From NCBI GenBank assembly GCA_031404695.1, contig JANNIB010000313.1, forward strand, positions 1 to 54,007: a stretch of DNA of 54,007 nucleotides. Reading direction: 5' to 3'. The first letter of the stretch is position 1. Every line of letters begins with the position of its first letter. The translations under genes and the position numbers were made by a program. The DNA comes from Acidobacteriota bacterium. Its GTDB lineage: Bacteria > Acidobacteriota > Vicinamibacteria > Vicinamibacterales > UBA2999. The notes under the pieces are model-generated. The model was not told the origin of the DNA and made no database searches. It saw only the letters and a list, made by a program, of their open reading frames with translations. Below are positions 8,823-39,800 of the stretch, piece after piece.

Positions 8823-9434
8823 ATGGCCGATTGCCTGGTCAACGACATACCGGAAACACTGGATTTCCGGCCAGAAACATGGGGTGAGTTGCTCGACCGG
8901 CTCGATCGCCGGCTCGCTGGCGACCGCCGGGTGGTGACGGCCGTGCGATTCGATGGTGTCGACCAGCCGTCATTCCGGCACCCGGCCATCGCCGGGACCA
9001 GCCTTGGTCGGGTGGCCCGGGTCGAGGTGGAAGCGGAAGACGCCGTGGCGCTGCTGCTGGCCGCCGTGGACGCCGCCAGCGACAGCCTGCCGGATCTGGT
9101 GGCTGGTGTGAGCCAGACGGCGGTGGCGCTGCGCAGCGATGCGCCGGATGCCCACGGGCAGCTCGGCTCGCTGGTCACGGCGCTGCAGTCGCTCGTGGCC
9201 CTGACCGTGGCCGCAGGCACCGCGGCCGACATCTCGTTCGGCTCCGACCCGGGCGCCGATGCGGCGGTCACCGGCGCCTGCGCGCGCATCGAAACGGCCC
9301 TCTCGACCGTGGTCGCCGGCCAGACCGACGGCGACCGGCGCGCGGTGGCCGACGCACTCGACCAGCACCTGGCCCCAGCCGTCGCCGGCTGGACCGACGT
9401 ATTGACTCCCATTCGCATGAGGGCCGCAGCATGA
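8823..9434 (+). CDS. hypothetical protein (no recognisable domain), first gene of the glycosylation operon
   Basis: 203 aa ORF with coding-like G/C third positions. It has an ATGA overlap with the next gene and is divergent from the flagellin promoter. Confidence 0.6.
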   Translation: MADCLVNDIPETLDFRPETWGELLDRLDRRLAGDRRVVTAVRFDGVDQPSFRHPAIAGTSLGRVARVEVEAEDAVALLLAAVDAASDSLPDLVAGVSQTAVALRSDAPDAHGQLGSLVTALQSLVALTVAAGTAADISFGSDPGADAAVTGACARIETALSTVVAGQTDGDRRAVADALDQHLAPAVAGWTDVLTPIRMRAAA

Positions 9435-9940
9435 GCGTCTCGTATCAGCATCCCGCTCCGGGCATGAGCACGATCTTCTTCGGCGCCACCGGACTCCATC
9501 TGCGCTACCGCTGCGACACCATCGGTCACCGCATCGTCGTCACCGACGAATCAGGCTCGGTCGTGCGCGTGTTCGGCGGCTTCGGCCGCAAGGCCGGCGC
9601 GCTCGATTCGCCGCTCGACGTGGTGTTCGTGCGGCCGGAGTTTGCCGGCGAACACCTGCCGGTGGATTCGGCCGATGCCGTCTGGGTGGCCGTAGCCGAC
9701 TACGGCAACCGCCGCGTGCAGGTGTTCGACCTCGACGGCAGCGTCGTCGGCGAGTTCGCCATCGACGCGCCGGGCGGCGAGCCGTGGACGCCGACCGGTC
9801 TGTCGTGGCGGTCGCCGGTGCTCGAGATCGAAGGCATCGAAGGCGCACACACCGCCGTGCATCTGAGCGCGGCGCTGCTGGCCGGCGCCGGTCGCACGGC
9901 TTACGGACGCACGGCGCCGGGCAGAGAGGCGCGGCACTGA
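9431..9940 (+). CDS. small NHL-repeat-like protein (two to three blades only)
   Basis: HRIVVTDESGSVVRVFGGFGRKAGALDSPLDVVFV and VWVAVADYGNRRVQVFDLDGSVVGEF match the NHL repeat pattern (aD.gN.RvqvFd..G). Confidence 0.6.
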   Translation: MSVSYQHPAPGMSTIFFGATGLHLRYRCDTIGHRIVVTDESGSVVRVFGGFGRKAGALDSPLDVVFVRPEFAGEHLPVDSADAVWVAVADYGNRRVQVFDLDGSVVGEFAIDAPGGEPWTPTGLSWRSPVLEIEGIEGAHTAVHLSAALLAGAGRTAYGRTAPGREARH

Positions 9941-11106
9941 TGGCGCCGACCACCACGACCGCGGTGCGTTTTGCGCCGCCGGTCATCGGCCGCGGCGAGA
10001 TCGACGAGGTCGTCGCCGCGCTCGAGTCGGGCTGGCTCTCGACCGGACCGCGGGTGCGGCAGTTCGAGGCGGCGTTTGCCGCCTACACCGGCGCGCCGCA
10101 CGCGCTGGCGCTGAACTCGTGCACCGCGGCCCTGCATCTGGCGCTGCTCGCCTTCGAGATCGGGCCGGGCGATGAGGTGGTCACGACGCCGCTCACCTTC
10201 TGCGCGACGGCCAACGTCGCCATCCACGCCGGCGCGACGCCGCGCTTTGCCGACATCGATCCCGACACCTGGAACCTGTCGCCGGCCGCGGCGGCGGCGG
10301 TGGTGACCTCACGCACGCGGGCGGTCGTGCCGGTGCACTTCGGCGGGCGTCCGGTCGACGTGCCGGCTTTCCGCGCACTTGCCGATCGTCATCGCCTGGC
10401 GCTCATCGAAGACGCCGCGCACGCGGTCGAAGCGGTGTCGGGCGGACGCAAGATCGGCGTCACGGCCGACGTCACCTGTTTCAGCTTCTACGCCACCAAG
10501 AACCTGACGACCGGTGAAGGCGGCATGCTCACGACCGCCGCCGACGCCGTCGCCCGCTTCGCCCGTACGGCGTCGCAGCACGGCATCAGCCGCGACGGCT
10601 GGGCGCGCTACAAGGAGATGGGCAGCCCGCACTACGACGTCCTGTTCCCCGGCTTCAAATACAACATGATGGATCTGCAGGCTGCCATCGGCCTGCACCA
10701 GCTCGCTGGTCTTGCCGCGCGTACAGCGCGCCGCGAGGCGGTGTGGCGGATCTATGACGAGGGTCTGGCCGACCTGCCGCTCGGGCGGCCGGCGCCGGTG
10801 CCCGACGGCGACGTCCACGCAAGGCACCTCTACTCGGTGCTGGTCGGTCCGGCCGCGGGCACCACGCGCGACGATCTCATTGCGCACCTCGCGGCGCGCG
10901 GCATCGCGACCAGCGTGCATTTCCGGGCGCTGCACCTGCATCCGTACTACCAGCAGCGGTATGGCTTCACGCGCGGGATGTTCCCCGAGGCCGAACGCGT
11001 CTCCGACCGCATTCTCTCGCTGCCGTTTGGCGGCGGCATGAGCGACGACGAGGCCTGGACGGTCGTCGAGGCGCTACGGCGTGCAATTCCGGGACGGACG
11101 CGCTGA
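9940..11106 (+). CDS. DegT/DnrJ/EryC1-family PLP aminotransferase (PseC/SpsC/LegC-type nucleotide-sugar 4-aminotransferase)
   Basis: RFAPPVIGRGEIDEVVAALESGWLSTGPRVRQFE is family-typical, and FSFYATKNLTTGEGGM contains the PLP lysine. TGATG overlap with the previous gene. The track start at 9784 is an extension. Confidence 0.9.
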   Translation: MAPTTTTAVRFAPPVIGRGEIDEVVAALESGWLSTGPRVRQFEAAFAAYTGAPHALALNSCTAALHLALLAFEIGPGDEVVTTPLTFCATANVAIHAGATPRFADIDPDTWNLSPAAAAAVVTSRTRAVVPVHFGGRPVDVPAFRALADRHRLALIEDAAHAVEAVSGGRKIGVTADVTCFSFYATKNLTTGEGGMLTTAADAVARFARTASQHGISRDGWARYKEMGSPHYDVLFPGFKYNMMDLQAAIGLHQLAGLAARTARREAVWRIYDEGLADLPLGRPAPVPDGDVHARHLYSVLVGPAAGTTRDDLIAHLAARGIATSVHFRALHLHPYYQQRYGFTRGMFPEAERVSDRILSLPFGGGMSDDEAWTVVEALRRAIPGRTR

Positions 11107-12083
11107 TGCCGATTATCCGACACGTGGCGGTCGTCTTTCGCGTTGCGGCAGGCCCGCGCCTCGGCTTTGGCCATCTCGTGCGGTGTCGCGCCATCGCCCG
11201 GGCGCTCGGGGTCGAGCCCTGCGTGTCGATCCGGGGCACGGCGGCGACCCGCCGCGCCGGCCAGCGGCTGGGCCTGCGGGTCGTGACCGGCGGCCGCGGC
11301 GTGCTCGACCGGGAAGATCCACAGGTGCTCGTCGTGGACGACCCGTCGGCGGCGGCGGCCCGTCCCTGGGTGGCGGCGGCCCGACGGCGCGGCGTCGCGG
11401 TGGTCTCGGTTCACGACGCCGGCCTGGCGCCGCTCGACGTCGACCTGGTCGTCGATGGCAGCGTGCGCGCGCCCGGCCCCGCATCGAAGACGCGGCTCTG
11501 CGGTCCGCGCTACGCGGTGCTCGACCCGCGCCTGACCTCACTGGCGGCCGGCCGGCGTCCGGCCGCCGGGCGGGTCTTGGTCGCCGTGGGCGGCGGCGCC
11601 CATGTGTTCTCGCGCGTGCCCGCGGTCGTCGCCGAGCTGGCGCGCCAGGTGCCCGGGGCCGACATCTGCGTGGCGCCCGGCTTCACCACCCGTCGCCGTC
11701 CGGCCCTGTCGTCGGGCCGCTGGCTGGCACCCGGACAACTCGCGGCGGCTCTTGCAGACTCGCAGCTGGCGCTGGTCGCCGGCGGCATCACCGCCTATGA
11801 GGCGTGCGCGCTCGGCGTCCCGGTGGTGGCCGTGTCGGTGGTACCGGCGCAGCAGCCGACCGTGCGTGCGCTGGCCCGTCGCGGCGCCGTGGTGGACGGC
11901 GGGCCGCTCAGCGCGGCCGGCGCCGCACGAAGGGTCGCCGGTCAGCTGGCGCACCTGCTCGCCGCGCCGGCGGCCCGGCGCCGCCTGGCGGTCGCGGGGC
12001 GCCGGCTCGTCGATGGGCGCGGTGCCGCCCGCGTCGCCACCGCCATCCGCGTCCTGGCGCGGCAGGGAGGGGCCCGTGGCTGA
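11106..12083 (+). CDS. PseG/SpsG-like UDP-sugar hydrolase (GT28 C-terminal-like fold)
   Basis: The N-terminal VVFRVAAGPRLGFGHLVRCRAIARALG matches the G-x-GH-x2-R motif of the PseG/SpsG family. The C-terminal LALVAGGITAYEACALGVPVVAV is GT-B-like. Confidence 0.7.
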   Translation: MPIIRHVAVVFRVAAGPRLGFGHLVRCRAIARALGVEPCVSIRGTAATRRAGQRLGLRVVTGGRGVLDREDPQVLVVDDPSAAAARPWVAAARRRGVAVVSVHDAGLAPLDVDLVVDGSVRAPGPASKTRLCGPRYAVLDPRLTSLAAGRRPAAGRVLVAVGGGAHVFSRVPAVVAELARQVPGADICVAPGFTTRRRPALSSGRWLAPGQLAAALADSQLALVAGGITAYEACALGVPVVAVSVVPAQQPTVRALARRGAVVDGGPLSAAGAARRVAGQLAHLLAAPAARRRLAVAGRRLVDGRGAARVATAIRVLARQGGARG

Positions 12084-12774
12084 GACCCGCGCCATCCTGT
12101 TCGATCTCGACGACACGCTCCATCCGCTCACGCGTTTCGTGATGAGCGGCTTTGCCGCCGTCGCCGATGTGGTCGAGGCACAGTGGCGGGTGCCGCGCGC
12201 GACCGTGCTCGCGACGCTCGTCAGCGCGATGGAGTCGGCCCGCGGCCGTGAACTGCAGGTGCTCGCCGAACGCCACGGCCTGCCCGGCGACGTCGTGCCG
12301 CAGCTGGTGGACGTGATCCGCCAGCACCTGCCGGTGCTGCGCCTGCCTGATCTGAGCGCCGGCGTCCTGGTGGCCCTGCGCCCGCACTGGCGCATCGGCG
12401 TCGTCACCAACGGGCGGCCCGACATCCAAGCGCGCAAGGTGCAGGCGCTGGGGCTGCACCGCTTCGTGGACGCGGTCGTCTATGCGTCGGAATGGGGCAG
12501 CGGCGCGGGCAAGCCCGAACCAGCGTCGTTTCACGAGGCCTGCCGCCAGCTCGACGTGCCGGAAGCGCGCACCGTGTTCGTCGGCGACGACCCCGACTGC
12601 GATATCGCCGGCGCCCGCGGCGTCGGCATGAAGACCATCTGGCTGCCTGCCCGTGTCGCACCGCCCACGGCGCGTGCCGCGGAGCTGGCGGATGTGACCG
12701 TGGCGTCGCTGGCCGACGTGCCTGCGGCGGCCACTCGACTGCTCGTGCCCGAATGGAGGGCTCATGTTGCCTGA
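12076..12774 (+). CDS. HAD-superfamily hydrolase/phosphatase
   Basis: Motif I is ILFDLDDTL, motif II is VVTNG, and motif IV is FVGDDPDCDIAGARGVGM. A GTG start follows GGGAGGGG. The start is inferred. Confidence 0.75.
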   Translation: MAETRAILFDLDDTLHPLTRFVMSGFAAVADVVEAQWRVPRATVLATLVSAMESARGRELQVLAERHGLPGDVVPQLVDVIRQHLPVLRLPDLSAGVLVALRPHWRIGVVTNGRPDIQARKVQALGLHRFVDAVVYASEWGSGAGKPEPASFHEACRQLDVPEARTVFVGDDPDCDIAGARGVGMKTIWLPARVAPPTARAAELADVTVASLADVPAAATRLLVPEWRAHVA

Positions 12775-13840
12775 CGCCACCCAGGTGCGCATCGGCGGCC
12801 GCGTGGCCGGTGATGGCGCGCCGTTGTTCGTGATTGCCGAGATCGGCCTGAACCACGACGGCTCGATCGAGCGCGCGCTGGCGCTGGTGGATGCGGCGGC
12901 CGTGGCCGGCGCCTCCGCCGTGAAAGTACAGGCGCTTTTCGCCGACGAGCTGGTCGCGCCGGGTGCACCGGCGCCGATGCACGTCGAGGCCGCGTCGCTG
13001 GCCGACTTCTTTCGGCGCTTCGAACTGGACGAGGCCGGCTACGCCCGGCTGGCGGTGCGGGCCCGCGAGCGCGGCCTGGCCTTCATCGCCACCCCGTTCT
13101 CCGAGCGCGCGGTCGACATGCTGGAGCGCGTGGGCGTGGACGCCTGGAAGATCGCCAGCGGCGACATCACCTTCGAGCGCCTCATCGAGCGCTGCGGCGC
13201 GACTGGGAAGCCGGTCATCATCTCGACCGGCATGGCGTCGCTGCCCGAGGCGCAGCGCGCGCTCTTCTGGGCCGAGCGCGCCGGCGCCGGCGGGGTGGCG
13301 CTGCTGCACTGCGTGTCGGCGTATCCGGTGCCCAAGGGCAGCGAGAACCTGCGCGCCATCGCCACGCTCGGCATGGCCTGCCGGGCTGTCGTCGGCTTCT
13401 CGGATCACGGCGCCGACGGCTTCTCGGTGCCGCTGGCAGTGGCCATGGGCGCCGCCATCTACGAGCGCCACCTCGTGCTGCGGGCCGGCGACGACAGCAT
13501 CGACGCCGAGGTGTCGAGCACGCCGGGCGAACTGGCGGCCCTGGTACGCGCCGCGGCGCGGGCGCAGGCCGCGCTCGGCACCGGCGTCAAGGCCTGTCTT
13601 CCGGCAGAGAAGGGGAACAGTGATCCCAGCCGTCGCGCGCTCTACGCCCGGCGCCGGCTGCCGGCCGGTCACGTGGTCGCGGCCACCGACCTCATCGCCT
13701 TGCGACCGGCCTGCGGACTGGGCGCCGATCGCCAGCGCGAGCTGGTCGGGCAGCGGCTGGGCCGCAACGTCGATGCCGGCGCGCCGTTCCAGCCCTCCGA
13801 CCTGCACGCGCATGACAAGGGGACCGAACATGTCGCTTAA
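12764..13840 (+). CDS. NeuB-family nonulosonic acid synthase (PseI/LegI/SpsE-type) with C-terminal SAF domain
   Basis: PLFVIAEIGLNHDGSIERALALVDAAAVAGASAVKVQ, AWKIASGDITF and HCVSAYP are NeuB-family motifs. A SAF-like tail is present. Confidence 0.9.
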   Translation: MLPDATQVRIGGRVAGDGAPLFVIAEIGLNHDGSIERALALVDAAAVAGASAVKVQALFADELVAPGAPAPMHVEAASLADFFRRFELDEAGYARLAVRARERGLAFIATPFSERAVDMLERVGVDAWKIASGDITFERLIERCGATGKPVIISTGMASLPEAQRALFWAERAGAGGVALLHCVSAYPVPKGSENLRAIATLGMACRAVVGFSDHGADGFSVPLAVAMGAAIYERHLVLRAGDDSIDAEVSSTPGELAALVRAAARAQAALGTGVKACLPAEKGNSDPSRRALYARRRLPAGHVVAATDLIALRPACGLGADRQRELVGQRLGRNVDAGAPFQPSDLHAHDKGTEHVA

Positions 13841-14834
13841 CGTGCTCATCACGGCCGGCTCGCGGCGGGTGCCGCTGGTGCGCGCGTTTCAGCGGGCGGT
13901 GGCCCATCACCGCGGCGGCAGCGTCGTGGTCACCGACGTGAACCCGTTGTCGCCGGCCGTGCACGCCGCCAACCGCGCCTACCGGGTGCCGCTCTCCACC
14001 GCCCCCGACTACATCGACGCCATCCTCGAGATCTGCGTCGGCGAACGGATCGGGCTGGTGGTGCCGACCATCGACGACGAGCTGGTGATCTTCGGCCGTG
14101 CCGCCGGCCGCTTCCTCGAGCATGGCGTGCGGGTGGCAGTGTCGCCGGCGGCGACCTCCGAGCTGTGCGAGGACAAGTACGCGACCTGCCGGTATCTGAA
14201 TGCCCGCGGCATTCCGGCCGCCGACTCGTGGCTGCCATCGGCGCTGCCCGAGACCCCGGCGTTCCCGCTCTTCATCAAGCCGCGACGCGGCCGGGGCAGC
14301 GTCGGCGCCTACCCGGTGCGCACCCGGCGCGAACTCGACTTCTTCGTCGACTACGTGCCTGACGCGGTCGTCCAGGCCTACCTCGATGGCCCCGAGTTCA
14401 CCATCGACCTGCTCTGCGACTTCTCCGGCCAGCCGCTCAGCATCGTGCCGCGCCGCCGCGACGTGATCCGCGCCGGCGTGAGCGACCGCGGCCGCACCGT
14501 GAACGACCCGGCGCTCATCCAGGTGGCGCGCACCTGCGCGGCCACCCTGCAGTTTGCCGGCGCCGTGAACATCCAGTGCCGCCTCGTGGACGGACGGCCG
14601 GTGGTGTTCGAGATCAACCCGCGCTTCTCCGGCGGCATTCCGCTGACCATTCACGCCGGCGCCGATTTCCCGCGCATGCTGGTCGATCTCACCGCCGGCG
14701 TGCGCGTGGCGCCGTCGATCGGCCGCTTCCGAGACAACCTCTGGATGGCCAGCTACGAGACCTCGGTCTTCCTCGACGGCACCCGCATCACCCTCCCCGA
14801 ATTCGCCCCGACCTGTGTAGAGGACGTCGCATGA
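13830..14834 (+). CDS. ATP-grasp family ligase
   Basis: LFIKPRRGRGSVGAY...VQAYLDGPEFTIDLL...NIQCRLVDGRPVVFEINPRFSGG is an ATP-grasp signature. Confidence 0.8.
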   Translation: MSLNVLITAGSRRVPLVRAFQRAVAHHRGGSVVVTDVNPLSPAVHAANRAYRVPLSTAPDYIDAILEICVGERIGLVVPTIDDELVIFGRAAGRFLEHGVRVAVSPAATSELCEDKYATCRYLNARGIPAADSWLPSALPETPAFPLFIKPRRGRGSVGAYPVRTRRELDFFVDYVPDAVVQAYLDGPEFTIDLLCDFSGQPLSIVPRRRDVIRAGVSDRGRTVNDPALIQVARTCAATLQFAGAVNIQCRLVDGRPVVFEINPRFSGGIPLTIHAGADFPRMLVDLTAGVRVAPSIGRFRDNLWMASYETSVFLDGTRITLPEFAPTCVEDVA

Positions 14835-15550
14835 GTGCCCGCGCTGCCATCGTCGTTCAGGCCCGCATGGGCTCCACCCGTCTGCCCGGCAAGTCGCTGT
14901 CGCCGATCGCCGGCCGGACGCTGCTGGCGCGCGTGGTGGAGCGTCTGCTCCATCAGGGCGAGCTGCCGGTCGTGCTCGCGACCACCACCCTGCTCGAAGA
15001 CGACCTGCTCTGTGAGGAAGCCGAGCGGCTCGGCGTCGCGGTGCTGCGTGGCTCGGCTGACGACGTGCTGGGCCGCTACGCCTTCGCGGCGTCGCTGCTC
15101 GACGTGCCGGCCATCATCCGGGCGACCGCGGACAACCCGGCCATCGACCTCGCCGCCGCGGTGCGCACGCTCGACATCCTGCAACGCTCGGGGGCCGACT
15201 ACGTCGTCGACTACGGCCTGCCGGTGGGCGCCACAGTCGAGGCGATGAGCGTGGCCGCGCTCGTGCGCGCGGCGGCGCTGGCGACCGACGCCTACGACCG
15301 CGAACACGTGACGCCCTTCATCCGCCGCGACGGCCGTTCGCGGGCGGTGGACGCGCTGGCGCCGACCGACCTGCGCCGGCCCGACCTGCGCTTCACGGTC
15401 GATACGGCCGACGACCTCGACTACATGCGGCGCGTGTATCTCGAGGCCGGGCCGTCCGACCAGCCGTGGCCGCTGGCCGCGCTCATCGAGGCCGCGGACC
15501 GCGTGCGCGTGCGGACCGAGCTCGAACAGACAGGAGCGGATGCACGGTGA
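14831..15550 (+). CDS. SpsF/PseF-type cytidylyltransferase (CMP-nonulosonic acid synthetase candidate)
   Basis: AAIVVQARMGSTRLPGKSL is the SpsF-like cytidylyltransferase N-terminal motif. ATGA overlap with the ATP-grasp gene. Confidence 0.8.
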   Translation: MSARAAIVVQARMGSTRLPGKSLSPIAGRTLLARVVERLLHQGELPVVLATTTLLEDDLLCEEAERLGVAVLRGSADDVLGRYAFAASLLDVPAIIRATADNPAIDLAAAVRTLDILQRSGADYVVDYGLPVGATVEAMSVAALVRAAALATDAYDREHVTPFIRRDGRSRAVDALAPTDLRRPDLRFTVDTADDLDYMRRVYLEAGPSDQPWPLAALIEAADRVRVRTELEQTGADAR

Positions 15551-16377
15551 CCACCCCACGACGCGTCTCCGACGCCGCGTTCCTCTTCAGCGTGCCGCTG
15601 ATGGTGGCGCTGGTCGTGGGCGCCCAGTCGCTCGACGGCGGCACCATCAGCACGCTGCTGCAGCCGGCGGCGGCGCTGGTCGTCTTCGGCGGCACCGCGG
15701 CGGCGGTGCTCTTCAGCTTCCCGCTGGCGCTGCTGGCCCGCACCGGCCGGGCGCTGGCGGCGGCCTTCGGGCGCCGTCCGGAATCCGACACGGCGCTGCT
15801 GACGCGGATGGGCGAATACGCCACCCGCGCCCGGACCCGCGGCACCTTGTCGCTCGAGAACGAGCTGTCGCGCAGCGACGATCCGTTCCTCATCCGCGCC
15901 CTGTCGCTGGTCGTCGACGGAGTGCCGGCCGCCGACGTGCGCCATACGCTCAAGACCTTCAGCCAGGTGCGTGAGGAAGCCGACGCCGAGTGCGCGCTCG
16001 TGCTCGAGGCCGCCGGCGGCTACGCGCCGACGCTCGGCATCCTCGGCGCCGTGCTCGGCCTGATCCAGGCGATGGAGCACCTGACCTCGCCGGCCAGCGT
16101 GGGGCCCGGGATCGCCGTCGCGTTCGTGGCCACCGTCTACGGCGTCGGCGCCGCCAATCTCGTATTCCTGCCGCTGGCGACGCGGCTGCGCAGCCTCGGC
16201 CGGCAGGCGGCACTCAGCCGCGAAGTGGTCATCGAAGGCGCGGTGGCGATTCAGCAGGGCATCCATCCGACGCTGGTGGACGGCCACCTGCGCAGTCTGC
16301 TCACGGCCTGGCACGGCGCGCCGCGCTACGCCGTGCCCACGGAGGGCGGGACGCGGGCGCGTCTCGTGAAGTCATGA
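15547..16377 (+). CDS. motA: flagellar stator protein MotA/PomA-type (copy 1)
   Basis: Multi-TM protein. IAVAFVATVYGVGAANLVFLPLATRL is the MotA/TolQ/ExbB channel motif. It is paired with an OmpA-domain MotB. GTGA overlap with the cytidylyltransferase stop. Confidence 0.85.
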   Translation: MTTPRRVSDAAFLFSVPLMVALVVGAQSLDGGTISTLLQPAAALVVFGGTAAAVLFSFPLALLARTGRALAAAFGRRPESDTALLTRMGEYATRARTRGTLSLENELSRSDDPFLIRALSLVVDGVPAADVRHTLKTFSQVREEADAECALVLEAAGGYAPTLGILGAVLGLIQAMEHLTSPASVGPGIAVAFVATVYGVGAANLVFLPLATRLRSLGRQAALSREVVIEGAVAIQQGIHPTLVDGHLRSLLTAWHGAPRYAVPTEGGTRARLVKS

Positions 16378-17063
16378 ACATCCGGCTCTCAGCCACGCAG
16401 GTGTCGCGCGATCGGTGGCTCATCTCCTACGCCGACTTCATGACGCTGCTGGTGGCGTTCTTCGCGACGCTGTATGCCGCGTCGCTGACCGAGACCGCGG
16501 TGACGACCGCACCGGCTCCGACCGAGACCGCCGCGCCGGCTACCGCGCCGCCGGAGGCGCCACCGCCCCCTGATCCGGCCGTGGCCCTGCGGGCCGAGGT
16601 CGAACGTGCGCTGGCGCCGGAACTCGCCGCCGGTTACCTGCAGCTCATCGAAGATCCGCGCGGGCTCGTCATCGAAGTGCCCGAAGCCGGCGCCTTCGAC
16701 GTCGGGCAGGCGGACCTGGCGCCGGAGGCGGCCCAGATGCTGACCCGTGTGGCGACGATGCTGACGACGCTGCCCAACGCGGTGCGCATCGAAGGCCACT
16801 CCGACACCACCCCGATCCGCACCTCGCAGTACGCCTCGAACTGGGAGCTCTCGACCGCGCGGGCGACCTGCGTGGTCGAGTTCCTGGTGACGACCGCCGG
16901 CCTGGCGCCGTCGCGGCTCTCGGCCGCCGGCTACGCGGAGTTCAAGCCGCGCGCCGCCAACGACACGCCAGCCGGGCGGGCCCGCAATCGGCGCGTCGAT
17001 CTGGTGCTGCTGAACGAGCGGACGACGCGGGCCGAGGAACCCGCAGGGAGCGCCCGTCCATGA
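16374..17063 (+). CDS. motB: flagellar stator protein MotB-type (copy 1), OmpA-like C-terminal domain
   Basis: WLISYADFMTLLVAFF has the conserved TM Asp. VRIEGHSDTTPI...NWELSTARA...NRRVDLVLL is an OmpA/MotB peptidoglycan-binding domain. Confidence 0.85.
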   Translation: MNIRLSATQVSRDRWLISYADFMTLLVAFFATLYAASLTETAVTTAPAPTETAAPATAPPEAPPPPDPAVALRAEVERALAPELAAGYLQLIEDPRGLVIEVPEAGAFDVGQADLAPEAAQMLTRVATMLTTLPNAVRIEGHSDTTPIRTSQYASNWELSTARATCVVEFLVTTAGLAPSRLSAAGYAEFKPRAANDTPAGRARNRRVDLVLLNERTTRAEEPAGSARP

Positions 17064-32981: not shown

Positions 32982-32984
32982 GGT

Positions 32985-34904
32985 ATGTGTGGCATCTGCG
33001 GCATGGTGGGACGCCCCGAGCGGGACACGCTCGGGCGGATGGCGGCCGCCATGACGCACCGCGGGCCCGACGACGACGGGTTCCACCTCGATGCCACGGC
33101 CGGCCTGGGCTTCCGGCGTCTGTCGATCATCGACGTGGCGGGCGGGCACCAGCCGCTCACGAACGAAGACCAGACGCTGCACCTGGTCTTCAACGGCGAG
33201 ATCTACAACCATCGTGAGTTGCGCGCCGGGCTCGAGGCCCGCGGGCACCGCTTTCGTACGCGCGCCGACGGCGAGGTGATCCTGCACCTCTACGAAGAAG
33301 AGGGCGCGGCGTGCGTCGCCAGGCTCAACGGGATCTTCGCGTTCGCGCTGTGGCATCCGGGCGCCGGTGAACTGGTGCTGGCGCGCGACCATCACGGCGT
33401 CAAGCCGCTCTACTACGCCGAGGCGCCCGGCCGACTCCTGTTCGCGTCCGAGATCAAGGCCCTTCTGGCCAGCGGCCAGGTCTCGCGCGATCTCGACCCG
33501 GAAGCGGTGTCGCAGTACCTGATCTATCAGGCGGTGCCGCCGCCGCTGTCGATCCTCCGCGACGTGCGGCAGCTTCCGCCCGGCAGCCTGCTGGTGCGCC
33601 GCCACGGCAACAGCCGCGTCACGCGCTACTGGTCGCCGCCACCGGAGGTGACCACCCCGGTGACCTCCGAGGCCGAGGCCTGCGAGATCACGCTCTCGGG
33701 GCTGCGCGCTTCGGTCGGCCGGCAGATGATGTCGGAACGGCCGCTGGGTGTGTTCCTGTCGGGCGGCGTGGACTCGAGTGCGCTCGTGGCATTGGCTGCC
33801 GAGCGTGTCTCGCACCCCCTCAAGACGTTTTCGGTCGGCTTCGTCGGGCCCGACGAACAAGTGCTCAGCGAGTGGCCGTGGGCCCGCATCGTGGCCGAGC
33901 GCTACGGCACCGACCATCAGGAGTTCGTGCTGACCGAGGCGATGTTCCGCGACCGGCTGCCGCATGCCTTCGCCGCGATGGACCAGCCGACCTCCGACGC
34001 CATCAACTCCTACTGGGTGTCGTACGCGGCCGCGCAGCACGTGACGGTGGCGCTCTCGGGCACCGGCGGCGACGAGCTGCTGCTCGGCTACAGCCGCGAC
34101 GCCCATCTGCTGCGCCGCTACGAACAGGGCCGGCCGCTCGGGCGTCTGCCGGCCGCTTACGTGCAGCGCATCGCGTCGGTGGTCGCCGGCGTGGCCAGCG
34201 ACCGGCTCTGGCAGTCGGTTGGCGGAATGCTCGAGACGGTCAAGGCGTTCGCGCTGCTCGACGAAGAATACCTGTCGCCCGCGGGCATCGCCATCTACAC
34301 GCCGTCACAGCGCGACGAGGTGCTGTCGGCGGCGATGCGCGCCGCCCGCGGCGCCGGGCAGAACGCCGCGGACTACCTGCGGGCCGACGTCGCGGCCGAC
34401 CTCGACCGCCCCGGCGACTGGCTGCTGCGGATGGAGCAGCGCGCCTACCTGTCGTCGGTGCTGCTGCGCGATATCGACGCGATGTCGATGGCCCATTCAC
34501 TCGAAGTGCGCGTCCCGTTCCTCGACCCGGAGTACGGCGCCGAGCTGGCGCGCATTCCGTGGCAGATGAAGTGCAAGGACGGCGTCGGCAAGTGGGTGCT
34601 CAAGCAGGCGCTCACGCCGCTGCTGCCCGACGAGATCCTGTTCCGTCCGAAGATGGGCTTCGGTCTGCCGTATCCGGTGTGGATGCGCCGCTCGCTGCAG
34701 CCGATGGTGCGCGATCTGCTGAGTCCGTCGCGGATCGCGCGACGCGGCGTCTTCGACCCGGTGGCGACCGGGCGGCTCGTCGAGCGCTTCTTCGCGGGTG
34801 ACGACGGCGTGTGGCGGCTGGTGTGGACGCTGCTGGCCTTCGAGGGCTGGGCCACCGAGGTGCTGGACCGCGGTGCGGAGGGGGGCCATGCGCGGGCGGC
34901 CTGA
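32985..34904 (+). CDS. asnB: asparagine synthase (glutamine-hydrolysing) family amidotransferase
   Basis: MCGICG is the N-terminal nucleophile motif. FLSGGVDSSALVAL is the PP-loop. Confidence 0.92.
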   Translation: MCGICGMVGRPERDTLGRMAAAMTHRGPDDDGFHLDATAGLGFRRLSIIDVAGGHQPLTNEDQTLHLVFNGEIYNHRELRAGLEARGHRFRTRADGEVILHLYEEEGAACVARLNGIFAFALWHPGAGELVLARDHHGVKPLYYAEAPGRLLFASEIKALLASGQVSRDLDPEAVSQYLIYQAVPPPLSILRDVRQLPPGSLLVRRHGNSRVTRYWSPPPEVTTPVTSEAEACEITLSGLRASVGRQMMSERPLGVFLSGGVDSSALVALAAERVSHPLKTFSVGFVGPDEQVLSEWPWARIVAERYGTDHQEFVLTEAMFRDRLPHAFAAMDQPTSDAINSYWVSYAAAQHVTVALSGTGGDELLLGYSRDAHLLRRYEQGRPLGRLPAAYVQRIASVVAGVASDRLWQSVGGMLETVKAFALLDEEYLSPAGIAIYTPSQRDEVLSAAMRAARGAGQNAADYLRADVAADLDRPGDWLLRMEQRAYLSSVLLRDIDAMSMAHSLEVRVPFLDPEYGAELARIPWQMKCKDGVGKWVLKQALTPLLPDEILFRPKMGFGLPYPVWMRRSLQPMVRDLLSPSRIARRGVFDPVATGRLVERFFAGDDGVWRLVWTLLAFEGWATEVLDRGAEGGHARAA

Positions 34905-35403
34905 ACGCATCCTGGTGTTCCGCTCGGGCCGGCACCTGCAGGTGGCACTGGCCGCACTGCGCGCCGCCTCGCCGGCGTGCGAGGTCACGGTGGTGGCGCG
35001 GCCCGACGCCGCCGTCGCGCTCGACCAGGCCGGAATCGATGACGCCCATCGCATCCCCTACGATCGCACGCCGTTCTTTCAGCCGCTGGCGTTCATCACG
35101 AGCCACGCCGGACGGCGTGCCGTCGCGGGGCGCTTCGACCGCGTGTGTGTGTTGTGGAACGGCCCGGACGGCGCCGGCCAGGCCAATGTCGACTACACGG
35201 CGCTGACGGTGTCGCCGCTGGGGTTCACCGCCATCACGCCAGACGGGACGCTGCTGGCGCTGCGCACCAGCGCGAACCTCGGTCGCGAGGCGGCGCGCGC
35301 CGTCTCGTCGGTGACGGTGGCGGCGTTTCTCGGGCTGACGTTGTACCTGCCGGCCCGGGTGCTCGCCCTGCGGCGCGGCGTCGCCGGGAGGGCGCCGGCG
35401 TGA
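34888..35403 (+). CDS. hypothetical protein, free-standing copy of the N-terminal domain of the 29965-31656 product
   Basis: RILVFRSGRHLQVALAALRAASPACEVTVV aligns with RVLMFRSCRMPQFAATLAWVRARWPSAAIDVV. It has a hydrophobic C-terminal segment. It overlaps asnB by 17 nt and the next GT by GTGA. Confidence 0.55.
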   Translation: MRGRPERILVFRSGRHLQVALAALRAASPACEVTVVARPDAAVALDQAGIDDAHRIPYDRTPFFQPLAFITSHAGRRAVAGRFDRVCVLWNGPDGAGQANVDYTALTVSPLGFTAITPDGTLLALRTSANLGREAARAVSSVTVAAFLGLTLYLPARVLALRRGVAGRAPA

Positions 35404-36470
35404 TCCGCGCGTTGCACGTCGTCGAGTCGCTGGCCGCCGGCGGCATCGAGACCACGTTCCTGAACGTCCTGCGCGCGTGGCGAGAGACGTCACCGTGGGC
35501 GACGCACGACGTCCTGGCGTGGGCCGGCGGGGCCCTCGAGGATGCCTACCGGATCGCCGCGGATGCGGTGACGATCGCCGCCGCGCCTGAGGTGCAGGCG
35601 GCGACGGTGATCGGGCCCTACGATGTCATCTACTTCACCTTCGAGCGCTGTGCCCATCGGCTGCTGCCCGTCGCCGTCTCGCGCAGCCGCGCCGCGGTCG
35701 TCTACGGCAAAGGCTACGACATGGGCGGCATGTTCCGCCTGAACGACGGGTTCAGGTGGCAGCCCGACGAGTCGATGATGTGGGCTGCCGATCACGTCAC
35801 CTTCACGACCGGGCGTCTGGCGGCCGGTTTCGCGGTGCCGGCGGGGCGGGCCACCGTCCTCGGCAAGGCGGCCGATGTGCGGCGCTTCGCTGACCTGCCG
35901 CCGGCCGACGCCTCGACCCCGAACCGCATCGTCTGTGTCGCCAATCTCCACGCCCGTAAACGCCTCGGCGATCTCATCCGCGCCGTCGCGCGGCTGCGGC
36001 CCGAGATCGACGGCCTCTCGCTGCGCCTGGTGGGCGCCGACAGCGGCGGGGAAGCGGACCACCTGGCGGCCCTCGCGGCGTCGCTGGGCATGGCTGAGGC
36101 GTGCGAGATGGTGGGGCGCCGGGTGGATGTGGCCGACGACCTGGCGGCGTCGCGTGTCTTCGCGTTGCCGTCGGGGTGTGAAGGCGTGCCGACGGCGATG
36201 CTCGAAGCCATGGCGGCGGCGCGTCCGGTGGTGATGACCGACGTCGGGCACGTCACGAGCGTCGTGACCGACGGCGTCGAGGGCTATGTCGTCACCGCCG
36301 GGGACGTCGAGGCCCTGAGCGATCGGCTGCGCACGCTGCTTGTCGACCCGGCGCGGGCACGCCGCATGGGGCTCGATGGGCGCTCGCGCGCGGCCGGACA
36401 CGACGTGCTGGCCGTGGCGTCGCGACTGCGTGCGGTCCTCGAAGGGGTCTGCGGAGTGCACGCGGCATGA
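35400..36470 (+). CDS. glycosyltransferase GT1/GT4-like
   Basis: IRALHVVESLAAGGIE at the N-terminus, plus VANLHARKR...VFALPSGCEGVPTAMLEAMAAARPVVMTDVG. Confidence 0.8.
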   Translation: MIRALHVVESLAAGGIETTFLNVLRAWRETSPWATHDVLAWAGGALEDAYRIAADAVTIAAAPEVQAATVIGPYDVIYFTFERCAHRLLPVAVSRSRAAVVYGKGYDMGGMFRLNDGFRWQPDESMMWAADHVTFTTGRLAAGFAVPAGRATVLGKAADVRRFADLPPADASTPNRIVCVANLHARKRLGDLIRAVARLRPEIDGLSLRLVGADSGGEADHLAALAASLGMAEACEMVGRRVDVADDLAASRVFALPSGCEGVPTAMLEAMAAARPVVMTDVGHVTSVVTDGVEGYVVTAGDVEALSDRLRTLLVDPARARRMGLDGRSRAAGHDVLAVASRLRAVLEGVCGVHAA

Positions 36471-37675
36471 ACCTCGTCGCCTCGCCTGGCCGGTCGGCGT
36501 CGATGACGCCCGTGCTCGATCTCGTCGAGCATATCGGGAGCGATCACGCGATGACGCAGGCCGACCTCGATCCGCTGCCGCCGGACGCCGCCGCGGCGTT
36601 GCCGGCGCTCTGGGCGGCCTATCAGCAGCACTGGGGCGGCTTCTGCGGCACACGGCTCGATCCGATGTTCTGGTCGCTCACACATCCGGCGCGGCTCACC
36701 GGCGCCGTGCGGGTCACGGACCGGGCATCGAGCGTCGTCGTCGGCACCGGGCCGTCGCTGGCGGCGGCGCTGCCCGCCCTTCAACGCCTGCGACCGGCCC
36801 TGCATCTCATCACCTCACCGCGAGGCGCGGAGGTGCTGGCGATGGCCGGCCTCGTGCCCGACCTCGTGGTCGTCGAACATCAGACCGCGCTCGACGCGCA
36901 GTTCTCCGCCAGCGACCAGTCGCATCGCCGCTCGTACGCGCTGGCGGCCGTGCCGCTGGTCGCCGCCGACGTGCGGACGCCGGCGGGCCTGCTGGCGTCG
37001 GTATCGGCCGAGCGTCTTTTCGTCCCCGACCCCTGGCCGTCGTGGGGCCTGTGGCCGGCCACGGCCGTGGCGCTGGCCCTGCGCGCCGGCGCTGGACGCG
37101 TCTGTCTCGTCGGCATCGACCTCGGCACCGTCGCGCACCCCGACCCCGCGCATGCCACGCTTCGCGATCTGCTGGCCGTGCTGGCCCGCCACGCGCCGGT
37201 GGCGTGTCTCGACCTCGGCGCCGGTGGCGCGCGGAAGCCGCACTGGACACTCTCGACGGTCGAGACCGTCGCGTCAGATCGCGCGGTCGAGCCAATGCGC
37301 CTCGACGCGCGGCCCTGGTTGACACCGGCCGAGCGCCGTTGCCGCGCCACCGAGCTCTGGCAGCGCCTGCGTCCGCTCGGCACGCGTGCCCAGGCGACGC
37401 TGGCCGCGGCGGGCGCCGTGCGCGACGGTGACCGGTCGGTGGGCATCGTCCAACGCATGTCCGACGCGCTCGGGGAGCTGCTCGCGGCCCGGCAAGAGCT
37501 GAACACGCGCATCGACGTACAGGACGGGCTCGGCGTGTCGTTTCTGCCGCGGCTGTGGCGCACGCCGCCGGACCTCGGGTTGGGCCCGCAGCTCTGGCGC
37601 GTCGCGGCGCTCGCGAGCCACGAATTCGTGGCGCAACATCGCACGCTCGGCCATCGCCTGGAGCACGGCACATGA
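36467..37675 (+). CDS. second, shorter Maf/DUF115 (MptE-like) family protein
   Basis: VVVGTGPSLAAALPALQRLRPALHLITSPRGAEVLAMAGLVPDLVVVEH and ATAVALALRAGAGRVCLVGIDLG follow the DUF115 core pattern. Confidence 0.55.
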   Translation: MNLVASPGRSASMTPVLDLVEHIGSDHAMTQADLDPLPPDAAAALPALWAAYQQHWGGFCGTRLDPMFWSLTHPARLTGAVRVTDRASSVVVGTGPSLAAALPALQRLRPALHLITSPRGAEVLAMAGLVPDLVVVEHQTALDAQFSASDQSHRRSYALAAVPLVAADVRTPAGLLASVSAERLFVPDPWPSWGLWPATAVALALRAGAGRVCLVGIDLGTVAHPDPAHATLRDLLAVLARHAPVACLDLGAGGARKPHWTLSTVETVASDRAVEPMRLDARPWLTPAERRCRATELWQRLRPLGTRAQATLAAAGAVRDGDRSVGIVQRMSDALGELLAARQELNTRIDVQDGLGVSFLPRLWRTPPDLGLGPQLWRVAALASHEFVAQHRTLGHRLEHGT

Positions 37676-38688
37676 CATCCGCAGCGTCGCCTGCGGTGTC
37701 GGTGCTGCTGCCGGTGAGAAACGGGATGCCGTATCTGCCGGCGGCCATCGGCAGCGTGTTGCGGCAGACGTTCCGCGATTTCGAACTGCTGGTCATCGAC
37801 GACGGCAGCAACGACGGCACCGCGTCGTATCTCACCGGCGTGACCGACGCGCGTATGCGCGTGGTAACGGCGCCGACGGCCGGACTGGCCTCGGCGCTCA
37901 CCGCCGGTCTGGCGGAGGCGCGTGGACGCTACGTGGCCCGGCAGGACGCCGACGATTGGTCGGCGCTCGACCGCCTCGCCCGGCAGGTGGCGTGGCTCGA
38001 CCGACGGCCGGACGTCGACGTCCTGGCCACCCCTGCCTCGTTCGTGGACGAGCGGGATGCGCCCGTGGAGTCGGCATGGACACAGGCGGTACGCGCCCGG
38101 TGGGACGCCGCGGTCACGCCGGACGAGATCGCGGCGCTGATGCCGCTCACGTGCTGCATCTTCCATGCGACGGTGATGGCGAGGACGGCGATTCTGCGCG
38201 ACGCGGGTGGCTACGACCAGGCCACCGTGCCGGCGGAAGACTACGACCTGTGGCTGCGGCTGTTGCCCGCGCACCGCTTCGCGCGCCTCGCCGAGCCGCT
38301 CTACACGGTGCGGGTTCACGCCGCCAGTTCCAGCGCCATTGGCCGCGCCACGCAGCTCGAACGCGTGATCGAGGCCAAGCTCCGTTACCTCCGTCGGCAG
38401 GTGCCGGAGCTGCCGTGGCCGGTGCGGCTGGTGCTGCCGGGGCACGACCGTGGCGCCGAGGTCTTCCGCCGTGTCGGTCGCGCGCTCGGCTTCGATGCCG
38501 CGATGCCGTCTGAGGGCGATGCGAGCGGCGTCGAGGTGGTGGCGGTCACCGACTTCACCGCGCTTCCGGCGTTTGCCGCTGCGGTGGCTGCCTCGGGAGG
38601 CGTCGCGCGCTACGGCAACCTGTTCGTGCGCGGTCCGCTTGCGCACGGCACCAGCGCGCCAGCGGCTCTCGGGGACCGGGCCTCGTGA
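37672..38688 (+). CDS. family 2 glycosyltransferase (GT-A)
   Basis: VSVLLPVRNGMPYLPAAIGSVLRQTFRDFELLVIDDGSNDGT and RQDADDW (DxD). Confidence 0.88.
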   Translation: MTSAASPAVSVLLPVRNGMPYLPAAIGSVLRQTFRDFELLVIDDGSNDGTASYLTGVTDARMRVVTAPTAGLASALTAGLAEARGRYVARQDADDWSALDRLARQVAWLDRRPDVDVLATPASFVDERDAPVESAWTQAVRARWDAAVTPDEIAALMPLTCCIFHATVMARTAILRDAGGYDQATVPAEDYDLWLRLLPAHRFARLAEPLYTVRVHAASSSAIGRATQLERVIEAKLRYLRRQVPELPWPVRLVLPGHDRGAEVFRRVGRALGFDAAMPSEGDASGVEVVAVTDFTALPAFAAAVAASGGVARYGNLFVRGPLAHGTSAPAALGDRAS

Positions 38689-38690
38689 GG

Positions 38691-39800
38691 TCAGCGCGTC
38701 GAGCGGTACAGCCCGTCGAAGGCGCCGACCATCTTCGTCCAGTCGTAGCGCGCCTCGACCATCGCCCGGGCGCGCTGCACGATGCGCGCCCGCCGTCGAT
38801 CGGTGAGCGCGGCGCCGAGCACGGCGGCGGTGGCAGCGGTGCCCCGGCACGGCACCGTCCACCCGGTGCGGCCGTCCAGCAGGAAGTCTTCGATGCCGGC
38901 CACGGCGCGGGCAGCCACCGGCACGCCGAGGGCCATCGCTTCGAGCACGGCGAGCCCCTGGCCTTCGTCGGCCGAGAGCGACACGAAGAGCGACCACCGG
39001 CGCACCAGCCGGCTCACATCACGGACTTGCCCGGCCACGTGCACGGCGTGGCCCAGTTGCAGGCGCGCGATGGTGTCGGTGAGCTGACGGGCGTAGGCGG
39101 CATCGGCGACCGGGCCGACGAGTTCGAGGCGCGCCTCGGGCACGGACGGCCGCAGCCGCGCGAAGGCCTCGACGAGCGCCACCTGGTTCTTGCGCGGCTC
39201 GATGCGGCCGACACAGCCCAGCACCGGCGCCCCGGTCGGCTGGTCCGTGGTGGTCCGGCAGGGAAGCGTCGCGAGATCGAGCCCCCAGGGCAAGTAGCTG
39301 AGACGGCGCGCCGTGACGCCGCCGGCGCGCAGCAGCCGGCTGTAGGCGTGCGCCGAACTGACCACCACGTCCGCCTGGCGAAACGCCCACAGGTCCTGCG
39401 TGTTCATCCACGCGGGCCGATCGGGACCCCAGCTGTACATCTGGCCCACGAGGCGCACGCGGCTGCCGGCGATGTCACGGGCCAGGGCGGCCAGACCGGT
39501 GGGCGTCCCGGCGTGCGCGTGGATGACCCCGGGCCGCAGCTCGTCGATGAGGGCCGCCAGACGCGCGGCGCTGGTCCAGTAAGTCGCGGCATCGCGCTGG
39601 AACGTGTCGATGTCGACGTGTCTGACGCCGGCGCGCGCCAGCTGGCGGCGATAGGACGGCCAGTCTGACAGCCCGTCGTGTCGAGCCGTCGTCACGAGCA
39701 CCACCGGCCTGTGCCGGACCTGTGCGGCGCACAGCGCCGAGATGACGCGACCGGCGCCACTCCAGAGAAAGGGCGCGACATGCAGGATGGGCGCAGACAT
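38691..39800 (-). CDS. glycosyltransferase GT1/GT4-like
   Basis: ILHVAPFLWSGAGRV at the N-terminus, plus VGRIEPRKNQ...LFVSLSADEGQGLAVLEAMALGVPVAARAVAGIEDFLLDGRTG. Confidence 0.8.
   Translation of the reverse strand: MSAPILHVAPFLWSGAGRVISALCAAQVRHRPVVLVTTARHDGLSDWPSYRRQLARAGVRHVDIDTFQRDAATYWTSAARLAALIDELRPGVIHAHAGTPTGLAALARDIAGSRVRLVGQMYSWGPDRPAWMNTQDLWAFRQADVVVSSAHAYSRLLRAGGVTARRLSYLPWGLDLATLPCRTTTDQPTGAPVLGCVGRIEPRKNQVALVEAFARLRPSVPEARLELVGPVADAAYARQLTDTIARLQLGHAVHVAGQVRDVSRLVRRWSLFVSLSADEGQGLAVLEAMALGVPVAARAVAGIEDFLLDGRTGWTVPCRGTAATAAVLGAALTDRRRARIVQRARAMVEARYDWTKMVGAFDGLYRSTR

Follow-up and report, generated by a model that had tools for sequence, protein, structure and literature searches.

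Why a block of about 31 kb made up largely of sugar-related genes should lie between a flagellin gene and the stator genes motAB is the question raised by contig JANNIB010000313.1 of an uncultured soil member of the Vicinamibacterales (Acidobacteriota), in which we analysed a window of 54,007 nucleotides (the whole stretch, referred to below as the 54-kb window). Our results indicate that the block (positions 8823-39800) is probably a Maf-type flagellin O-glycosylation island, all steps of which would take place in the cytoplasm. This interpretation, which an earlier sequence-only reading of the same DNA had also reached, is based on (i) the presence of two Maf proteins, one of them confirmed at the level of fold (5MU5), (ii) a nonulosonic-acid core, (iii) a location between flagellin, fliD and fliS on one side and motAB on the other, (iv) the lack of export genes, and (v) the linkage of the sugar modules to Maf.

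Gene content and the Maf-methyltransferase fusion

The window has a G+C content of 72%, and raw lists of open reading frames (ORFs) were swamped by spurious entries (159 ORFs of at least 90 aa in the region), so genes were called with a codon-usage log-likelihood model; a filter based on GC3 alone was overly strict and lost half of the genes. The model placed 50 non-overlapping genes in the window and 27 of them within the island, one more than the 26 counted previously. Approximately 24 of the 27 are sugar-related. The remaining three, which encode a MotCD-like stator pair and a GGDEF-EAL enzyme, have no part in glycosylation. Four transcription units were distinguished; the long plus-strand unit extends from 8823 to 28230, and 4-bp gene overlaps are frequent in it.

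As shown in Table 1, Pfam annotation bore out the enzyme inventory of the sequence-only reading for nearly every item. Besides the nonulosonic-acid core, it recovered two Maf/DUF115 proteins (PF01973; cut-off 34.6 bits), five GT-B glycosyltransferases (GTs; genes at 18217, 28402, 30037, 35400 and 38691, the second and the last on the minus strand) and one GT-A enzyme (GT2, 37696), the PseG-like GT-B hydrolase being additional to these. Four S-adenosylmethionine (SAM)-methyltransferase (MT) domains (19487, 24115, 25582, 31653), a radical-SAM/SPASM enzyme, an ATP-grasp ligase, a HAD hydrolase, WbqC and AsnB were likewise identified. In the case of the pyruvyl-transferase-like domain, the similarity is there but remained below threshold (E=1.4e-4).

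A distinctive protein is the long Maf, in which the transferase is followed in one chain by a class-I SAM methyltransferase and a further C-terminal module. Its homologues are approximately 916-920 aa long, and the true start of the 882-aa protein may therefore lie upstream of the one assigned. For an AlphaFold2 model of the protein, based on 21 homologues (pLDDT 81), the best Foldseek match was the Magnetospirillum Maf 5MU5 (E=5.4e-14), and the C-terminal domain of the model matched class-I SAM methyltransferases, among them KijD1, which C-methylates NDP-sugars. No homologue deviates in the GxGxG SAM motif (residues 620-624) or in its acidic partners.

When the C-terminal 402 residues were searched against 1.84 billion representative proteins, no more than 15 clusters were obtained at E<=1e-30. 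Among the 150 matches listed, about 25 span most of the C-terminal module, and the remainder are generic methyltransferases of 250 aa; most matches of the module sit at residues 500-1040 of proteins of 860-1100 aa. Judged by these searches, the fusion architecture is rare, and all of the long-Maf homologues bearing organism names come from Vicinamibacterales or Acidobacteriota. A literature search found no paper pairing the terms 'motility associated factor' and 'methyltransferase domain'.

Directly before the fusion lies a cassette encoding a radical-SAM enzyme (CxxxCxxC motif at residues 40-47), a Methyltransf_24 protein (MT24) and WbqC. The last of these, which may correspond to Campylobacter jejuni PtmG (Cj1324), a correspondence of which our literature search gave no statement, had no match among PDB sequences. 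WbqC is encoded immediately upstream of the Maf-MT fusion in 10 of the 11 full-length homologues with upstream sequence, and one gene further away in the eleventh. At loci with other types of Maf it was found in only 2 of 33 cases.

The flagellin gene is divergent from the island and lies 168 bp upstream of it. The protein is 265 aa long if translation starts at MASFSVV, and its centre is rich in Ser, Thr, Gly and Ala. It contains two Lys residues, which makes lysine methylation improbable as the task of the methyltransferases; a sugar would be the likelier methyl acceptor. The sigma-28-like pattern upstream of the gene had one match in the window versus 0 expected (100 shuffles), although this pattern had been loosened from the textbook consensus post hoc. 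A sigma-54-like sequence (TGGCAT-N7-GC) in front of the sugar operon (8782-8797) was rejected, as two sites were found against 2.35 expected by chance.

To the left of the island are flgM, flgK, flgL, fliW, csrA and a GNAT gene, followed by fliS, fliD and the flagellin gene; to the right are canonical motAB and then genes of cyclic di-GMP (c-di-GMP) signalling. The window contains two stator sets, the MotC/MotD-like pair inside the island and canonical MotA/MotB at its right border. The start of motA1 (15547) overlaps the end of the cytidylyltransferase gene (15550) by 4 bp, and motB1 starts at 16374. This arrangement suggests a dual-stator motor, one stator of which is co-expressed with filament glycosylation.

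Table 1. Predicted features of the island and its immediate surroundings (positions in the window).
Feature	Position	Strand	Evidence
GNAT acetyltransferase, 312 aa, beside csrA	4449..5387	+	Acetyltransf_1 E=2.8e-10
Flagellin, 265 aa, D0/D1 only	7857..8654	-	Flagellin_N 84 bits, Flagellin_C 71 bits
Sigma-28 (FliA)-like promoter, TAAAG-N15-CCGATTA, upstream of flagellin gene	8737..8763	-	sole match in window
203-aa Ala/Leu-rich protein, first gene of sugar operon	8823..9434	+	no Pfam/NCBIfam match
169-aa protein, faint NHL-repeat similarity	9431..9940	+	NCBIfam ScyF, NHL stretch only, E=3.5e-6
Pyridoxal phosphate sugar 4-aminotransferase (DegT)	9940..11106	+	Pfam 416 bits
Divergent PseG-type UDP-sugar hydrolase, GT-B fold	11106..12083	+	NCBIfam PseG 60.7 bits (cut-off 153.6), E=1.6e-16
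HAD-IA hydrolase	12076..12774	+	Pfam Hydrolase 70.6 bits; TIGR02253 109 bits (below cut-off)
NeuB-family nonulosonic acid synthase	12764..13840	+	Pfam NeuB 208.5 bits + SAF
ATP-grasp ligase, conserved core	13830..14834	+	ATPgrasp_Ter 95.5 bits; PylC-like_N 78 bits
CMP-sugar cytidylyltransferase	14831..15550	+	Pfam CTP_transf_3 87.4 bits
MotC/MotD-like stator pair	15547..17063	+	NCBIfam PRK09109 226 bits; MotD PRK09038 184 bits
UDP-GlcNAc 4,6-dehydratase, C5-retaining Mx3K class (PglF/WbpM)	17111..18208	+	Polysacc_synt_2 261 bits
GT4 glycosyltransferase	18217..19344	+	Glyco_trans_1_4 59 bits; Glyco_transf_4 57 bits
N-terminal GT-B/pyruvyl-transferase-like (weak) + C-terminal class-I methyltransferase	19487..21145	+	PS_pyruv_trans 22.4 bits (cut-off 25.3); Methyltransf_11 31 bits
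GGDEF-EAL c-di-GMP enzyme, degenerate receiver domain, non-sugar	21142..23061	+	EAL 209 bits, GGDEF 160 bits
Radical-SAM/SPASM enzyme, Methyltransf_24 (TylF-like), WbqC cassette	23105..25585	+	Pfam; WbqC 249 bits
Maf fused to class-I SAM methyltransferase + C-terminal module, 882 aa	25582..28230	+	MptE-like 112.8 bits
GT1/GT4 glycosyltransferase	28402..29691	-	Glycos_transf_1 28 bits; conserved in L001, L002, L006
Large GT4 (TviE/stp2-like), Trm112-methyltransferase fusion, AsnB-type glutamine amidotransferase	30037..34904	+	Pfam; AsnB 278 bits
171-aa orphan, small Pfam-less family	34888..35403	+	no Pfam domain
GT1 glycosyltransferase, short Maf (402 aa), GT2 (GT-A)	35400..38688	+	Pfam; short Maf MptE-like 41.4 bits
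GT4 glycosyltransferase, conserved right border, divergent from motA	38691..39800	-	Glycos_transf_1 94.8 bits
Canonical motA/motB, right flank	39891..41684	+	MotA TIGR03818 357 bits (cut-off 303.8); MotB_plug + OmpA

Nonulosonic-acid core, exchangeable modules and proposed product

The NeuB and CTP_transf_3 matches both exceed the Pfam cut-offs, which places a nonulosonic acid synthase and a CMP-activating enzyme in the cluster. The synthase scored 258.9 bits with NCBIfam NeuB versus 223.4 with PseI (PseI cut-off 340.3), both below cut-off, and among PDB sequences 149 bits with Neisseria meningitidis NeuB versus 132 bits with PseI 8H2C. The DegT aminotransferase reached 339.8 bits with NCBIfam PseC (cut-off 423.5) and 336 with ArnB, its closest PDB sequence being ArnB (290 bits, versus 150 for PseC 2FN6). 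As a single sequence the PseG-like hydrolase had no match in PDB, whereas a profile of four orthologues matched PseG 3HBM of C. jejuni (E=2e-5, versus E=0.29 for NeuC-type 3DZC); the alignment takes in almost all of 3HBM and pairs the GFGH motifs.

The dehydratase stands closer to PglF than to PseB. Its closest PDB sequence is C. jejuni PglF/WlaL (190 bits, versus 81 for PseB 2GN4), and it scored 105 bits with NCBIfam PseB, for which the cut-off is 408. The motif SDKAAAPRSVMGATK, of the pattern SDKx7Mx3K with Met replacing the catalytic Tyr, is kept in all 12 orthologues examined; Mx3K is the signature of C5-retaining WbpM/PglF enzymes and Yx3K that of the inverting PseB (review PMC8987622, Table 1).

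By these signatures the core is of mixed type, combining features of the pseudaminic acid (Pse) and legionaminic acid (Leg) pathways and fitting neither canonical pathway cleanly. The locus contains no PseB and no PseH of the Pse pathway. Of the Leg pathway, the C5-retaining dehydratase is present, but the hydrolysing 2-epimerase is absent from the locus: neither Pfam nor NCBIfam detected NeuC/LegG (Epimerase_2) among the island proteins, and a copy elsewhere in the genome is possible. The original Pse/Leg framing accordingly has to be qualified. The two signatures could be brought into agreement by the radical-SAM enzyme or by an epimerase whose gene lies at another site in the genome.

For comparison, we collected 45 related loci (numbered with the prefix L) by scanning one genome per species for Maf. 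All but four are titled as Acidobacteriota or Vicinamibacterales metagenome-assembled genomes (MAGs), the exceptions having generic or Bifidobacteriaceae titles. Three loci (L018, L028 and L034) are titled 'uncultured Bifidobacteriaceae/Bifidobacterium', yet show an Acidobacteria-type Maf and stator context, and these bin labels look wrong. In L001, which lies on a 2.2-Mb contig of another MAG, the gene order over the 22.6 kb compared (motA1 to GT2) is identical to that of the island, with 88-99% protein identity, and an assembly artefact is thus excluded.

The core genes for DegT, the PseG-like hydrolase, HAD, NeuB, the ATP-grasp ligase, the cytidylyltransferase, MotC, MotD and the dehydratase have counterparts of 45-70% identity in L006, L016, L024, L030, L036 and L045, and in these six loci the stator pair again lies between the cytidylyltransferase and the dehydratase. 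In L030 the core directly adjoins the flagellin gene. The HAD gene, which belongs to the conserved core, is retained in L016, L030, L036 and L045, and the ATP-grasp gene was found in 10 related loci; the only PDB relative of the ligase is the structural-genomics entry 2PN1. The constant presence of these two enzymes may point to an N-acyl substituent other than acetyl, or to an aminoacyl one.

A possible source of N-acetyltransferase activity lies outside the island. The GNAT protein encoded at 4449 shows weak NCBIfam similarity to the WecD/RffC 4-amino-4,6-dideoxy-sugar acyltransferase (E=1.9e-6), and its adjacency to csrA (fliW, csrA and the GNAT gene at 3746-5387 in the window) recurs in L013, in front of a Maf gene. 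This protein is therefore a possible candidate for the missing step, or it may be a flagellar regulator. Two small proteins open the sugar operon. The one at 8823 has a 28%-identical homologue in the same position in L016, and the one at 9431 a 30%-identical homologue in the same position in L045. The former is, speculatively, a candidate Maf specificity factor; like the protein at 5450, it appears helical from its sequence.

The comparison of the 45 loci revealed several conserved modules: (i) the sugar core, (ii) radical-SAM-MT24-WbqC, in some cases with DegT, (iii) GT4-Trm112-MT-AsnB-orphan-GT1-short Maf-GT2, and (iv) the border formed by the minus-strand GT4 and motA. The GT/AsnB/second Maf module is conserved in L001, L002, L006, L008, L010 and L014. 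Within it, the trio of GT4, Trm112-MT and AsnB was found together in 11 related loci, and the order GT1-short Maf-GT2 is kept in L001, L002, L006 and L014. Against NCBIfam, the trio reached 460 bits with asn_synth_AEB, which exceeds the cut-off of 267, and 149 and 104 bits with stp2 and TviE, respectively. In L001, the closest relative (~17400-19500), the AsnB homologue was called as two ORFs (88% and 96% identity); the gene may be frameshifted or a pseudogene, or the sequence of this long-read MAG may contain an error. The Trm112 zinc-ribbon and class-I methyltransferase protein (31653-32981) has an additional C-terminal stretch (residues ~340-442) that by eye resembles a Rossmann-type nucleotide-binding domain and belongs to no Pfam family.

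A search of 5.8 billion proteins at E<=1e-3 gave only 134 homologues of the 171-aa orphan of this module, all of them devoid of Pfam domains; the three listed homologues with an organism name are all from Vicinamibacterales. Its AlphaFold2 model comprises a Rossmann-like domain and a long hydrophobic C-terminal helix. Foldseek returned nothing at E<=1e-3 for this model, the best matches being generic Rossmann half-domains with a faint resemblance to the N-terminal half of GT-B enzymes. Its designation as an 'Alg14-like half-GT' would be speculation.

The right-border GT4 gene is the immediate neighbour of motA2 in L022 and L024, and L029 and L041 also carry the two genes. Between the same borders L022 and L024 carry other cassettes, namely a true pyruvyl transferase, a GT99-family protein, GT1 enzymes, MT24 and a long Maf devoid of the methyltransferase. 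The centre of the island is thus a hypervariable region whose cassettes are exchanged between lineages, like that of the islands of Clostridium, Geobacillus and Aeromonas. At the corresponding place in the island (L022 13290-14795 and L024 12943-14532), a bona fide pyruvyl transferase is found together with a protein whose N-terminal domain is of the GT99 family (ulosonic-acid transferase-like); these represent alternative glycan-extension cassettes. In L006, L008 and L009 a second DegT gene takes the place of the GGDEF-EAL gene, whose product in our window has intact GGDEF and EAL motifs. The pyruvyl-like/methyltransferase protein encoded at 19487 has no relative among PDB sequences.

A pathway can be proposed from the enzyme families, which were identified by sequence; we infer the substrates. 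The dehydratase (17111) and DegT (9940) would convert UDP-GlcNAc into a 4-amino-4,6-dideoxy-HexNAc, whose amine would be acylated by GNAT (4449), aminoacylated by the ATP-grasp ligase (13830), or both. The PseG-type hydrolase (11106) would then release the free sugar, the NeuB-type synthase (12764) would condense it with phosphoenolpyruvate to a 5,7-diamino-tetradeoxy-nonulosonic acid, and the cytidylyltransferase (14831) would activate the latter to the CMP-sugar. The donor may be tailored by the radical-SAM/MT24/WbqC cassette, e.g. by amidino formation, methylation or epimerisation. The adjacent Maf-MT fusion would transfer it to Ser/Thr residues in the exposed centre of the flagellin and methylate the sugar. 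Finally, the short Maf, together with the soluble GT4, GT1 and GT2 enzymes, Trm112-MT and AsnB, may modify other sites, or extend or decorate the glycan.

The chances that the product goes beyond a single decorated nonulosonate seem to us about even. By analogy, it is plausible that the nonulosonic acid is heavily decorated, that several sugars form a chain, or both, since both Pse-linked oligosaccharides and two-Maf systems have precedents (PMC7874193; bioRxiv 10.1101/2023.12.03.569772). The earlier suggestion of a glycan 'not yet described' is a nearly trivial expectation, given that our literature search gave no text combining 'flagellin glycosylation' with 'Acidobacteria'. A more far-reaching proposal for the related Vicinamibacterales MAGs combines (i) a sugar that is neither Pse nor Leg, made by an unprecedented pairing of a retaining dehydratase with a non-epimerising PseG-type hydrolase, (ii) constitutive aminoacylation by the core ATP-grasp ligase, (iii) a new class of Maf that both transfers and methylates and is fed by radical-SAM/WbqC, and (iv) a link between glycosylation and stator choice through the MotCD overlap. 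That all of these should hold together is rather unlikely.

Flagellin or another acceptor

Several observations weigh against the assignment to flagellin glycosylation by a nonulosonic-acid pathway. Every core enzyme scored below its own NCBIfam equivalog cut-off, and Pfam detected no acetyltransferase domain, and hence no PseH-type enzyme, in the proteins of 8823-39800. Since the dehydratase (retaining) and the hydrolase (PseG class) come from two distinct canonical pathways, the stereochemistry of the sugar is not assignable. The related loci were retrieved through Maf, and ascertainment therefore biases in part the linkage seen between Maf and the modules. The organism is uncultured and represented by MAGs only, and the glycosylation role is predicted from its genes. 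Moreover, several GTs and AsnB find their best NCBIfam matches, below cut-off, in exopolysaccharide (EPS) families of the PEP-CTERM/XrtA type.

The last point raises the possibility of a composite locus, the left part of which (core and Maf-MT) serves flagellin, while the right part (GT4big, Trm112-MT, AsnB, GT1c, GT2 and GT4rev) builds a glycan of EPS, capsule or lipopolysaccharide (LPS). The families matched by GT4big, GT1c, GT4rev and AsnB are stp2 and eps_aminotran_1 of the PEP-CTERM/XrtA systems, TviE and EpsE, and in Aeromonas caviae a single island does serve both flagellin and O-antigen (PMC7874193). However, the EPS matches lie far under the curated cut-offs (e.g. 149 versus 409 and 494 versus 817), and Pfam scanning of the products of the 54-kb window found no priming GT, flippase (Wzx), polymerase (Wzy), ABC transporter or (outer-membrane) export domain. 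Hydropathy scanning of the island marked MotA1 and MotB1 as its only clear membrane proteins; the others, including the sugar enzymes, had no convincing membrane segment (zero, or one to two marginal windows with Kyte-Doolittle values of 1.62-1.84 against a threshold of 1.6). In addition, the second Maf is located inside the right module, in the conserved order GT1c-Maf2-GT2. In at least 13 diverged MAGs the module, whole or in part, is no more than 10 kb away from a Maf gene, and homologues of the 171-aa orphan and of the Maf-MT fusion seem to share contigs in at least 12 cases, as judged from identical lengths alone. We consider a division of this kind distinctly improbable.

The exchange of the island centre between relatives, as well as the split AsnB homologue of L001, would also fit a locus that performs a simple monosaccharide modification only, the surplus GT and methyltransferase genes being cargo that a hypervariable region carries redundantly or in a state of decay. 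This is very unlikely, given that none of the 27 genes is disrupted and all score well for codon usage, that the motifs checked are preserved (methyltransferase GxGxG, radical-SAM CxxxCxxC), and that the extended gene set occurs in the same order in MAGs whose Maf is 47-71% identical (L002, L006), which argues for purifying selection. Nonulosonic acids also occur on LPS, capsules and S-layers in other phyla, and the target protein is deduced here from gene context; one may thus think of general protein O-glycosylation or surface sialylation (pili, S-layer, LPS) with flagellin as one target at most. We regard this as extremely improbable: Maf-family transferases are so far known solely as flagellin glycosyltransferases (bioRxiv 10.1101/2023.12.03.569772), the island lies within the late flagellar cluster, with stator and CMP-sugar genes overlapping by 4 bp, and the hydropathy scan found no oligosaccharyltransferase or ligase (PglL/PglB/WaaL-like membrane protein) in the island. 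The flagellin-directed function remains the interpretation that we prefer.

Comparison with known islands and neighbouring genes

The island had been described as unusually large, which was not upheld. Its size is at the upper end of the known range and not exceptional, as the islands of Geobacillus, Aeromonas and C. jejuni equal or exceed it and three of its genes are not sugar-related. Also in C. jejuni NCTC11168 a large locus lies by the flagellin genes and combines nonulosonic-acid biosynthesis with several Mafs; it extends from cj1293 to cj1342 and comprises two nonulosonic-acid pathways and seven maf genes (PMC13130089). The two systems may further share amidino/N-methyl tailoring (PtmG/PtmH in C. 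jejuni), and both have extra methyltransferase and HAD genes (PMC13130089, PMC13317340). In contrast, the C. jejuni locus has ~50 genes and complete canonical Pse and Leg pathways, whereas the present island has one non-canonical core, a Maf-MT fusion, five soluble GT-B enzymes and one GT-A, AsnB and a radical-SAM enzyme.

The group II islands of Aeromonas (A. piscicola AH-3) resemble the present one in that a pse-type core is split around a variable block of GT and modifying genes. They contain many GTs and yield a heterogeneous methylated, phosphorylated oligosaccharide (a heptasaccharide) attached to flagellin via a nonulosonic acid, a Pse derivative (PMC7874193). Fatty-acid/luxC genes and canonical pseBCFGHI are found there; here, instead, there are a PglF-type dehydratase, ATP-grasp, radical-SAM/WbqC, AsnB, two Mafs and embedded stator genes.

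The fliW-csrA flagellar layout, which is associated with Firmicutes, is common to our window and to Geobacillus/Clostridium. The latter also have hypervariable islands of 13-30 kb amid flagellar genes, with Maf, nonulosonic-acid genes, GTs and methyltransferases; those of Geobacillus measure 13.4-30.4 kb, with 11-23 coding sequences and up to three kinds of methyltransferase (PMC5109656), and that of C. beijerinckii contains motA/motB (PMC13317340). Unlike these islands, which are of low G+C content and seemingly horizontally acquired, the present one matches the G+C content of its genome. The G+C profile of the window gave no clear signal of horizontal acquisition: it falls to 0.68-0.69 in two places (23-25 kb, 31-33 kb), but the fall over the flagellar genes is just as deep. 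The stator pair is also different, being MotCD-like, overlapping the CMP-sugar genes and conserved in position across the related MAGs examined.

As in Shewanella oneidensis, a long Maf with a C-terminal accessory domain and a short Maf of ~400-440 aa are encoded in the same cluster (bioRxiv 10.1101/2023.12.03.569772). The C-terminal domain of S. oneidensis Maf-1 is a flagellin-binding TPR domain, whereas here it is a SAM methyltransferase with a coiled-coil/C-terminal module. In the Shewanella study only TPR-bearing, bare and GlfM-dependent Mafs were described (bioRxiv 10.1101/2023.12.03.569772). The 171-aa neighbour of our short Maf is Rossmann-like in its model, unlike the four-helix bundle of GlfM.

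Overall, the system is of a familiar type; what distinguishes it is the mixed core, the ATP-grasp and HAD enzymes within this core, the Maf-MT fusion with radical-SAM/WbqC, the orphan family and the stator overlap. Acidobacteriota are among the most abundant soil bacteria, and the flagellated Vicinamibacterales would carry a conserved, modular flagellin glycosylation system. The Maf-MT fusion, the mixed nonulosonic core, the radical-SAM/WbqC cassette and the Pfam-less family, so far seen in one lineage, are targets for enzymology, and their study might broaden what is known of the chemistry of sialic-acid-like sugars in bacteria.

The surroundings of the island are dense in signalling genes: the segments 41822-45560 and 47901-50193 encode PAS-HisKA, GGDEF, REC-HD(GYP-like) and PAS-GGDEF-EAL proteins and a lone receiver. 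The Rfam scan of the window detected no riboswitch or other RNA element within the island, its single match being a tRNA gene (47732-47804, minus strand, 73.8 bits), which is unrelated to the island. The same applies to the genes at 50335-54006, which encode a UvrA-like ABC ATPase (982 aa) followed by a methylpurine-DNA glycosylase.

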